This document shows positions 28,241-29,041 of a stretch of DNA of 38,040 nt, in pieces. Position 1 is the stretch's first letter; each line of letters opens with the position of its first letter. The position numbers and the translations under genes were made by a program. The notes below the pieces were generated by a model. It was given only the letters and a program-made list of their open reading frames with translations. It was not told where the DNA came from and ran no database searches. Source of the stretch: Escherichia phage Louie; the sequence record PQ850616.1; one strand, given 5' to 3'.

Positions 28241-29041
28241 ATGGCAAAAAAACCTACACCAGACCAGGTAAAAAAGATTCGTTCCGGCATTACCAAGAAA
28301 ATACGGTTTGAGGTTTTCAAGCGCGATGGCTTCAAATGCCAGTACTGTGGGAGTTCTGCGCCAGACGTCATCCTTCATGTCGACCATATCAACCCAGTTA
28401 GCAAGGGTGGCGATAACGACATGATGAACCTTATTACTTCTTGCGATAGTTGTAATGGCGGGAAAAGCGACAAACTGCTCAGCGATAACTCAATAATGGA
28501 AAAGCAAAGGCAGCAACTCCAGGAACTTAATACCAAGCGAGAGCAACTGGAGATGATGATCAAGTGGCGAGATGGTCTTAAGAGCCTAAAAGACGATGTT
28601 GTTGATATTGTCGCTACCAAAATTGACGACTGCATTGCACCATTTACTGTTAATGACAATGGGCGAAAATCTATCAAGAGATGGCTTCGAATATATAAGC
28701 TTGAAGAAATACTCGATGCGATTGAGATTGCCGCAGACAAAAAACTCACCCAAGAAATAACCCATGAGCTTACTGGTGAATTCTTTGAGTACATCCCTCG
28801 CATAGCAGCGACAAAAAGAAAACCGCCAAAAGAACAAAGGATTCTATACATCAGAGGAATCCTTAAAAACCGCATATATATCAATCAAAACCATGTAATG
28901 AGTTATCTCAAGGCATGGCTTTCATACGACTTAGATCTCGATGAACTTACTGAGTTTGCGAAAACAGTACCTAACTGGACAACGTTCAAGGAGTGGGTAT
29001 CTGAACGCATTCGTGAAGCTCAGGAAGAACTCCCGTACTAA
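28241..29041 (+). CDS. HNH endonuclease-domain protein (266 aa) in the position upstream of the replication initiator
   Basis: N-terminal CQYCG…HVDHINPVSKGG…SCDSCN zinc-HNH motif; GGAG RBS; C-terminal about 170 aa of unknown function. Confidence 0.75.
   Translation: MAKKPTPDQVKKIRSGITKKIRFEVFKRDGFKCQYCGSSAPDVILHVDHINPVSKGGDNDMMNLITSCDSCNGGKSDKLLSDNSIMEKQRQQLQELNTKREQLEMMIKWRDGLKSLKDDVVDIVATKIDDCIAPFTVNDNGRKSIKRWLRIYKLEEILDAIEIAADKKLTQEITHELTGEFFEYIPRIAATKRKPPKEQRILYIRGILKNRIYINQNHVMSYLKAWLSYDLDLDELTEFAKTVPNWTTFKEWVSERIREAQEELPY

Follow-up and report, generated by a model that had tools for sequence, protein, structure and literature searches.

Homing endonuclease genes commonly carry a recognised DNA-binding module, a feature that is not obligatory. 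In phages, different classes of these genes share the same loci, lie beside essential genes and are located at boundaries of genetic exchange (Barth et al., PMC10448857). A phage nuclease of another kind, ICP1 Odn, joins a T5orf172 nuclease domain to a RepA_N-like DNA-binding domain and cuts the origin of a satellite at its iterons (PMC8263062). The small HNH protein gp74 of phage HK97 is accessory to an essential DNA-transaction machine. Genes of the gp74 type adjoin the terminase and portal genes (Kala et al. 2014, cited in PMC12315714). The helical DnaD/DnaB_2 (DDBH2) domain of replisome organisers was also counted among the closest known systems.

The gene described here comes from Escherichia phage Louie (PQ850616.1), the window being the whole 38,040-nucleotide stretch of DNA that was analysed. 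It encodes an HNH domain followed by a C-terminal domain (CTD) and lies in the slot between cII and the replication initiator. Judged from sequence comparisons, the HNH-CTD gene probably encodes a free-standing, homing-type HNH nuclease within a nuclease hot-spot at the immunity/replication junction; we assign this reading a probability of about 0.55. The single gene is ordinary, having already been annotated as 'HNH endonuclease' in same-type GenBank records, and it is the pattern around it that is noteworthy: a large, strongly conserved family, phrog_16986, almost always placed on the start codon of an initiator, with T5orf172 genes mostly occupying that position in relatives.

The HNH-CTD gene, its product and its neighbours

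The features of the locus, with coordinates in the window, were as follows.

27927 to 28219, plus strand: lambda-type cII, the left flank, whose stop codon forms the left mosaic junction (lambda homology; gene annotation in phage Dewey, which is identical here)
28168 to 28195, minus strand: oop-type terminator hairpin within the 3' end of cII (terminator scan; inside the lambda-homologous segment)
28231 to 28234, plus strand: GGAG, a putative Shine-Dalgarno-like element read off the sequence, 6 nt 5' of the ATG
28241 to 29041, plus strand: HNH-CTD gene, 266 aa, an ATG-start open reading frame and phrog_16986 member (full-length match, E=1e-151)
28295 to 28477, plus strand: zinc-HNH (beta-beta-alpha-Me) nuclease domain, residues ~19-79
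28487 to 28633, plus strand: single long helix, residues 83-131 (~49 residues), with the conserved motif REQLEMMxxWR (AF2 model, pLDDT ~72-96)
28634 to 29038, plus strand: seven-helix CTD, residues ~132-266 (about 135 residues), with the signature Y203-x-x-G-I-x-x-x-R211 and W246
29053 to 29940, plus strand: replication initiator, the right flank (PHROG replication-initiation families); the slot ends at its ATG, the right-hand mosaic junction
29534 to 29586, no strand assigned: iteron-like repeats within the initiator gene (21-bp unit x2.5; CTGATTC x5)
29925 to 30788, plus strand: DnaC/IstB-like helicase loader, the remainder of the replication module (Pfam IstB_IS21, E=3e-18; phrog_50, E=7e-86)

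The open reading frame at 28241-29041, with its ATG start and the GGAG upstream, was confirmed as a real gene. Phage Dewey encodes an identical protein, annotated 'HNH endonuclease', from a gene that is 99.5-99.9% identical in nucleotides. The gene was also found in an Stx1a phage, unannotated there. Of 5426 complete E. coli genomes 18 carried it, and identities across Dewey and these genomes were 99.5-100%. On the left, cII matched lambda with 98.5% nucleotide identity, up to but not beyond the cII stop codon. Lambda itself has O (38686-) immediately after cII (38360-38653), as the first-pass annotation of the sequence had stated. The oop-type hairpin is part of this context and lies outside the nuclease gene; an Rfam scan of 26500-30500 gave no match. 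On the right, the initiator matched phrog_17247 (E=1.5e-191) and phrog_16167 (E=2e-50), and the repeats within it are the presumed origin.

An AlphaFold (AF2) model built on 47 homologues (pLDDT 88) had three parts: the small HNH domain, the long helix and the all-helical CTD, which in the model spans residues 139-263. Residues 33-77 matched Pfam HNH (PF01844; E=1e-13, 51.6 bits against a cut-off of 21.4) and the domain also matched HNH_5 (E=3.5e-12). The CxxC...CxxC zinc ligands C33, C36, C68 and C71 and the catalytic or metal-binding residues D48-H49, N63 and N72 were invariant in the alignment of the 47 diverse homologues, so that the protein has the catalytic His and the Asn metal ligands of the HNH superfamily together with the zinc site of this subtype. 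Four residues of the long helix (R100, Q102, M105 and W109) were likewise invariant, and the modelled helix is possibly a coiled-coil or dimerisation element. The sequence relatives of the nuclease domain, NCBIfam families included, were the Gme HNH nicking endonuclease 4h9d, McrA and the HNH domains of IscB and Cas9, and its structural matches were McrA, Gme HNH, GVE2 HNH and Cas9 HNH.

HNH-domain and coiled-coil matches dominated the fold search with the full model and for this reason the CTD was modelled alone. The CTD-only model had no match in BFVD at E<0.1. Pfam searches of residues 81-266 and of the CTD from 30 homologues gave no match, nor did a comparison of the CTD with PDB sequences, and no NUMOD, IENR1, AP2, HTH_3-like or other recognised homing-endonuclease DNA-binding module was found in it by Pfam, PDB sequence or fold comparison. 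When the CTD profile was compared by hhalign with the Louie initiator and with a DnaD-like organiser, the probability was below 1%. A profile search with the CTD recovered 1142 clusters at 50% identity, mostly HNH-CTD proteins of ~250-270 aa. Stand-alone CTD proteins of ~160 aa without HNH were also found (one verified on its contig), as were longer forms (400-570 aa) that continue beyond the CTD, and the existence of these stand-alone and extended forms indicates that the CTD is an autonomous module. The 400-570 aa homologues were considered as HNH-CTD-initiator fusions and set aside; their C-terminal extensions were unlike initiators by eye and their contigs were too short to give context. 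The picture drawn by the first-pass annotation, of a 266-residue zinc-HNH protein placed between cII and an iteron-bearing initiator and ending in a domain to which no function could be assigned, was therefore borne out by the Pfam match, the invariant zinc ligands, the cII and PHROG matches and the outcome of the domain searches.

Slot contents, junctions and selection

The slot was surveyed in 80 viral contigs, chosen because their initiator N-terminal domains were the most similar to that of Louie (61-100% protein identity), the gene ending at the initiator start being classified in each. A T5orf172/MUG113 (GIY-YIG-like) nuclease was the occupant in 47 of the 80, compared with 6 for the HNH-CTD family (range 6-8). 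About 5 of the remaining loci held HNH proteins of other types and 2 held a DUF968-like protein; one had a chimera in which an initiator N-domain was joined to an HNH-like domain, and 7 had an HK639_53-like protein of 134-143 aa with no recognisable domain. In about 12 a small open reading frame or a cII-like gene alone lay next to the initiator. Some nuclease-domain gene was present beside at least about 58 of the 80 initiators. Phages HK639 and Hafnia yong1, which have been isolated and propagated and have complete genome records, carry initiator N-domains 84-89% identical to that of Louie, have no HNH gene and hold unrelated genes in the slot, the yong1 gene being beta-clamp-like. The CTD was not shared with these other occupants: BLASTP against HK639_53, yong1 gp27 and Bas106_0049 found nothing, and neither did hhalign of the CTD profile against the T5orf172 protein of E. 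coli OW1E2.

Chimeric proteins were also encountered in these neighbourhoods. Two contigs, L174 (1864-2508) and L006 (6740-7291), encode an initiator-type N-terminal DNA-binding domain joined to an HNH-like nuclease, the N-domains being only 49-53% identical to those of their own initiators. An initiator with an in-frame HNH insertion was found in E. coli 20AR0300 (L101). Fusion of an HNH domain to an initiator, or its insertion into one, is also represented by phrog_5718.

Between an HNH-bearing contig and contigs of the T5orf172 or HK639_53 type, nucleotide homology began at 2500/2501, which is the initiator ATG, and continued through the initiator and loader at ~82% identity. These homology boundaries, together with the variable contents, define the slot as a cassette between the cII stop and the initiator ATG. 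Since initiators with N-domains of 85-98% protein identity differ in what their slots contain, the gene has the polymorphic presence and precise junctions of a homing endonuclease gene. It also lies beside an essential gene, the initiator being immediately downstream with a highly conserved 5' coding sequence. With its intact nuclease as the third point, the gene conformed to the homing-endonuclease pattern in these three respects.

An obligatory component of the replication module would be present with every initiator of the same type. The HNH-CTD gene was not: it accompanied 6-8 of the 80, it was absent from HK639 and yong1, and some slots were empty. The survey and these two phages show that the initiator works without the gene. 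Co-option of the nuclease for replication had been the alternative offered in the first-pass annotation, which had named sporadic presence of the gene, with normal replication of the phages lacking it, as an observation that would speak against it. This was largely what the synteny comparison revealed, with the gene scattered among near-identical initiators and propagated phages lacking it, and the HNH-CTD protein is most likely not a required cofactor of the initiator.

The identity profile against the close relative L023 was mosaic. Identity was 97-100% over the 5' half of the HNH-CTD gene and 91-97% over its 3' half, fell to 72-84% in the initiator N-domain and reached 99% in the iteron region. 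Upstream of the HNH-CTD gene, homology extended for only ~80 nt, into the 3' end of a cII gene that was unrelated over the rest of its length. This profile indicates that recombination breakpoints flank the nuclease gene. The iteron region was the best-conserved segment of the module, at 87-99% identity in all comparisons. Over the first 96 nt of the initiator, HNH-linked and HNH-less alleles differed only in a lineage-correlated GCA codon, with no diagnostic target polymorphism.

The dN/dS of the HNH-CTD gene was 0.05-0.06 against relatives of 93-98% protein identity, the HNH and CTD parts being alike, and 0.03 against a more distant relative for which dS was near saturation. These values indicate that the gene is functional and not a decaying remnant. 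For the initiator next to it, the same pairs of genomes gave a dN/dS of 0.12-0.17.

No pair of HNH proteins at least 60% identical was found beside non-homologous initiators, so that recent independent hopping between initiator types was not caught, and HNH and initiator identities were positively correlated (Spearman 0.34). Taken together, these two results suggest that over short time scales the gene is inherited with its module. The initiator allele and the HNH gene were each present in 18 complete E. coli genomes, with the same strains recurring. The exceptions were OW1E2, in which a 78%-identical initiator was accompanied by a T5orf172 gene in place of HNH, and 20AR0300, in which the HNH gene lay beside variant initiators.

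Spread of the family in phages and bacteria

More than 1500 homologues were found, in more than 1100 clusters at 50% identity. Of the viral or phage loci, 67 extended far enough downstream to be examined, and in 66 of these the HNH-CTD gene was directly upstream of a replication initiator. Measured from the HNH stop, the start of the next gene fell at -38 to +24 nt, the commonest overlaps being 8 or 4 nt, and overlaps of 8, 4, 17 or 1 nt with the initiator were seen across phyla. The next gene matched the phrog_1408/2149/16167 group in 46 of the 67 loci, and others were O-like, DnaD-like or primosomal. The initiators belonged to non-identical families (phrog_1408/16167 type, O-like, DnaD-like, DUF1376 and DnaT-type). 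Pseudomonas JBD44-like phages have the order HNH-CTD, initiator, DnaB, and marine contigs also carry the gene beside an initiator. Further examples were a DnaT-domain initiator with a lambda-P-like loader in Providencia, an HTH_36 O-like initiator in Vibrio, a DUF1376 initiator in Komagataeibacter and, in a Gram-positive host, the DnaD-like organiser of Oenococcus phage Krappator27. The paper on Oenococcus phage Krappator X27 does no more than name its homologue an HNH endonuclease within the replication module, and a literature search found no functional study of the family.

Bacterial homologues at ~40-45% identity were distributed over the representative genomes of Proteobacteria, Planctomycetota, Acidobacteriota, Bacteroidota, Verrucomicrobiota, Cyanobacteria/Melainabacteria, Firmicutes, Actinomycetes, Chloroflexi and Patescibacteria. 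By BLASTP the downstream gene was initiator-like in only 22 of 80 bacterial loci; a few more had a tightly coupled downstream open reading frame of unassigned family, and about 45 had no coupled partner and were flanked by unrelated housekeeping genes. The 98 neighbours of these lone copies fell into 107 Pfam families, with DpnII (4 loci) as the sole recurrent neighbour. In Ca. Electronema, for example, the copy is found within the rpsB-tsf-pyrH-frr cluster, with pyrH on one side and frr on the other. Lone copies among housekeeping genes are the behaviour of a self-contained mobile gene, unlike that of a machine subunit. This large family is most likely horizontally mobile and, in phages, specialised for the site immediately before the initiator gene.

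Interpretation and comparison with known systems

The sporadic presence of the gene, the unrelated or absent slot genes of relatives and the lone copies in many phyla together favour a homing or selfish nuclease. In the mechanism that we propose, the gene would be transcribed from pR together with cII and the replication genes, and the CTD would position the zinc-HNH active site on DNA, probably with dimerisation via the long helix. The enzyme would then nick or cut the genome of a related co-infecting or resident phage that lacks the gene, near the conserved 5' end of the initiator. Recombinational repair would copy the nuclease gene, with variable lengths of the flanking replication module, into the cut genome; the outcome would be spread of the gene and sharp mosaic junctions on either side. 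Homing had already been raised in the first-pass annotation. That suggestion gains from the sporadic presence, the variable slot and the lone copies, and loses in that the CTD is not a typical homing-endonuclease DNA-binding module.

Four further observations weigh against homing, one being the lack, noted above, of close HNH pairs beside non-homologous initiators. The neighbouring initiator families are so diverse that a single conserved target sequence shared by all of them is unlikely. This initiator allele hardly ever occurs apart from the HNH gene in complete genomes of E. coli. Finally, a gene that benefits the phage could also show a dN/dS lower than that of the essential gene beside it. 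The diverse initiators, the tight coupling to the initiator start and the strong purifying selection keep two other explanations alive.

In the first of these, which we consider possible although rather unlikely, the protein is a replicon-interference nuclease comparable to ICP1 Odn or T4 marker exclusion, which would cut the origin or initiator region of competing related phages, prophages or satellites in the same cell and disable their replication with or without copying of the gene. The persistence of a nuclease beside initiators of many types and the low dN/dS are consistent with such a role, as are the L174 and L006 chimeras, whose architecture is that of Odn, and the HNH-inserted initiator of L101. 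The Louie protein itself has no initiator-like DNA-binding domain that hhalign could detect, and lone chromosomal copies amid housekeeping genes do not fit phage competition. In addition, PADLOC gave no full-length match to a defence family, only weak HNH-domain matches to PtuB, ZorE and Cas9 (E of 1e-7 or weaker).

A role as an accessory replication or recombination nuclease of its own replicon appears more doubtful still. Such an enzyme would nick at or near the iterons for rolling-circle priming or for the theta-to-sigma switch, or would process intermediates, and several unrelated nucleases, HNH-CTD and T5orf172 among them, would be interchangeable. The overlaps suggest translational coupling with the initiator, and the high proportion of slots with some nuclease-domain gene, the HNH domains within initiators, the presence of the nicking enzyme 4h9d among the closest solved relatives and the stronger constraint on the HNH-CTD gene than on the initiator all point in this direction. 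To our knowledge, however, lambda-type O/P replication requires no phage nuclease. Moreover, viable phages with near-identical initiator N-domains have no recognisable slot nuclease (the HK639_53-like loci and yong1), the loci with a tiny open reading frame or cII alone also lack one, the family is frequent outside a replicon context, and CTD-only homologues without HNH exist.

That the protein is a domesticated DNA-binding or regulatory protein with a functional CTD and a vestigial nuclease, like the endonuclease-derived repressor CapR of PLE, is very improbable: stand-alone ~160-aa CTD genes exist, the CTD is constrained at least as much as HNH (dN/dS 0.03-0.05) and domestication of homing-endonuclease relatives is documented (PMC8096241), but loss of nuclease function should have relaxed the metal and catalytic residues, which are invariant in 47 homologues, and the HNH part is itself under purifying selection. 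A gp74-like packaging role was ruled out by the position of the gene in the early right operon.

If slot nucleases drive gene conversion, they would help to explain the sharp immunity/replication mosaic junction of lambdoid phages. If they instead target the origins of rival replicons, they would represent a general mechanism of replicon competition, and Odn-like warfare would be widespread in temperate phages of many phyla. A broader and speculative view is that the position upstream of this initiator class is a functional 'nuclease slot', in which interchangeable HNH-CTD, T5orf172 and initiator-domain/HNH chimeric proteins might act on origin or initiator DNA, either by destroying or converting the replicons of related phages and satellites in the same cell or by nicking the phage's own DNA for the theta-to-sigma switch.

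Compared with known systems, the Louie protein shares with HK97 gp74 its nature as a small phage HNH protein, and it differs from gp74 in the location of its gene beside the initiator and in its extra 135-residue domain. Its similarity to Gme HNH 4h9d and to the HNH domains of IscB and Cas9 is limited to a domain of ~60-95 residues; unlike IscB and Cas9, it has no RuvC, guide-RNA or other parts, and it scored 60 bits against a family cut-off of 175. Like ICP1 Odn, it is a phage nuclease genetically tied to an initiator and origin, and both T5orf172 genes, as slot occupants in the majority of relatives, and true Odn-like chimeras occur in equivalent or neighbouring loci. It differs from Odn in having HNH in place of T5orf172 and in showing no detected similarity between CTD and initiator; the fusion of an initiator-type origin-binding domain to a nuclease that distinguishes Odn is present in the L174 and L006 chimeras and not in the Louie protein.

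The free-standing phage HNH homing endonucleases (T4 MobA-E, I-HmuI and I-TevIII type; Skunavirus and ICP1 genes) differ from HNH-CTD in three respects: HNH-CTD is without NUMOD, IENR1, AP2 or another recognised module, it is unusually conserved (40-57% identity across phyla, dN/dS ~0.05), and its niche is fixed immediately upstream of several initiator families. In common with them, it is a single-gene beta-beta-alpha-Me nuclease in an intergenic position beside a conserved essential gene, sporadic in close relatives, with other nuclease classes at the same site and a mosaic boundary alongside (PMC10448857).

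Occupants of the slot between cII and the initiator

The gene that most often filled the slot between the cII stop codon and the initiator ATG was not the HNH-CTD gene, which encodes the zinc-HNH protein with a helical C-terminal domain (CTD). Among the 80 viral contigs with the closest initiator N-terminal domains, the commonest occupant was a gene for a protein with a T5orf172/MUG113 (GIY-YIG-like) N-terminal domain; in 47 of these contigs, this gene ended on the initiator ATG. The slot proteins of this type were 187-254 aa long, and their C-terminal half of approximately 120 aa carried no domain assignment. 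Seven of the 80 loci carried instead a Cys-rich protein of 134-143 aa, of the type represented by HK639_53, for which no family match was found. The product of a further slot gene, gp27 of Hafnia phage yong1, weakly resembled the DNA polymerase III beta clamp in its central domain; this match, with E=1.8e-4, fell short of the Pfam cut-off.

Slot genes other than HNH-CTD (coordinates are those of the compared loci)
L133 1808-2500: T5orf172-type gene
L100 2296-2988: T5orf172-type gene, E. coli OW1E2
L005 2472-3116: T5orf172-type gene, phage Bas106
L004 2956-3492: yong1 gp27, 178 aa
L003 3098-3502: HK639_53

Sequences flanking the slot

The hairpin of the lambda oop-type terminator was retained inside the 3' end of cII (window 28168-28195, minus strand). 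Where lambda has the oop start and promoter, the window has intergenic sequence followed by the beginning of the HNH gene (28220-28300), and no promoter-like site was found on the minus strand of this replacement region. On the other side of the slot, comparison of the initiator gene over window 29100-29700 revealed that the iteron segment (29500-29600) was its most conserved stretch, at 87-99% in all comparisons. Conservation was lowest over 29100-29400, within the coding sequence for the N-terminal domain, at 64-86%; the differences there were mostly synonymous, with dS values of 1.2-1.8 for those pairs where dS was calculable. Elsewhere, the early-left region contained a 340-aa ORF (24739-25761, minus strand), very rich in Glu, Ala, Lys and Arg, the product of which is probably a coiled-coil protein.

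Forms and locations of the HNH-CTD family

The long helix of the HNH-CTD proteins carried the motif LEMM, in which M105 was invariant and M106 nearly so (codons E104-M105-M106, window 28550-28558). Several database homologues of approximately 160-170 aa began exactly at the MM of this motif. These could be truncated gene calls; alternatively, they could be a sign that translation may also begin internally, giving an isoform of helix and CTD that lacks the nuclease. The Leu and Glu codons of the motif create a GGAG, which lies too near the first ATG for normal Shine-Dalgarno spacing. Longer homologues also were present, three of 558-570 aa (P0143, P0171 and P0173) and others of 400-500 aa, all seen on short contigs only. 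In the long forms the HNH domain and CTD were followed by an acidic linker and then by one or more extra domains of 170-310 aa; the extra C-terminal region appears to be common to P0143, P0171 and P0173.

The lone chromosomal copies of the family included those at L011, L244, L252 and L263. The copy in Ca. Electronema (L011 6001-6810) separated pyrH from frr within the rpsB-tsf-pyrH-frr cluster. The sole recurrent neighbour of lone chromosomal copies was a DpnII restriction endonuclease, at four loci that appear to be from Gastranaerophilales/Melainabacteria. In E. coli 0H24, 0H25 and 0H26 (NZ_CP081778, NZ_CP081694, NZ_CP081786) the HNH-initiator module was present on the chromosome and again on circular records, 30-39 kb long and labelled "plasmid"; these records may represent the Dewey-like phage in excised or episomal form.

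Nuclease motifs joined to initiator sequences

Two arrangements combined initiator and nuclease sequences in one gene.

L174 1864-2508: chimera
L006 6740-7291: chimera
L038 4731-5282: chimera
L101 3001-4038: initiator with in-frame HNH domain (Pfam HNH, residues 137-175), second prophage of E. coli 20AR0300

The L101 initiator, the counterpart of phrog_5718, belonged to the same family as that of the window, and its C-terminal 150 aa were almost identical to the window initiator. Its HNH domain was inserted in the linker just ahead of the iteron-encoding segment, and an HNH-CTD gene also was present upstream.

In the chimeras, an N-terminal domain of initiator type was fused to a C-terminal HNH-like motif (WHVDHI...NLQ...N); this domain was a divergent copy, sharing 49-53% identity with its counterpart in the full initiator next to it. 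The real initiator was encoded directly downstream of the chimera gene; in L006 the gene order was HNH-CTD gene, chimera, initiator. With an initiator-type N-terminal domain joined to a nuclease-like motif, the chimeras in L174, L006 and L038 resemble Odn, the origin-directed nuclease of ICP1, which combines an initiator-type DNA-binding domain with a nuclease.
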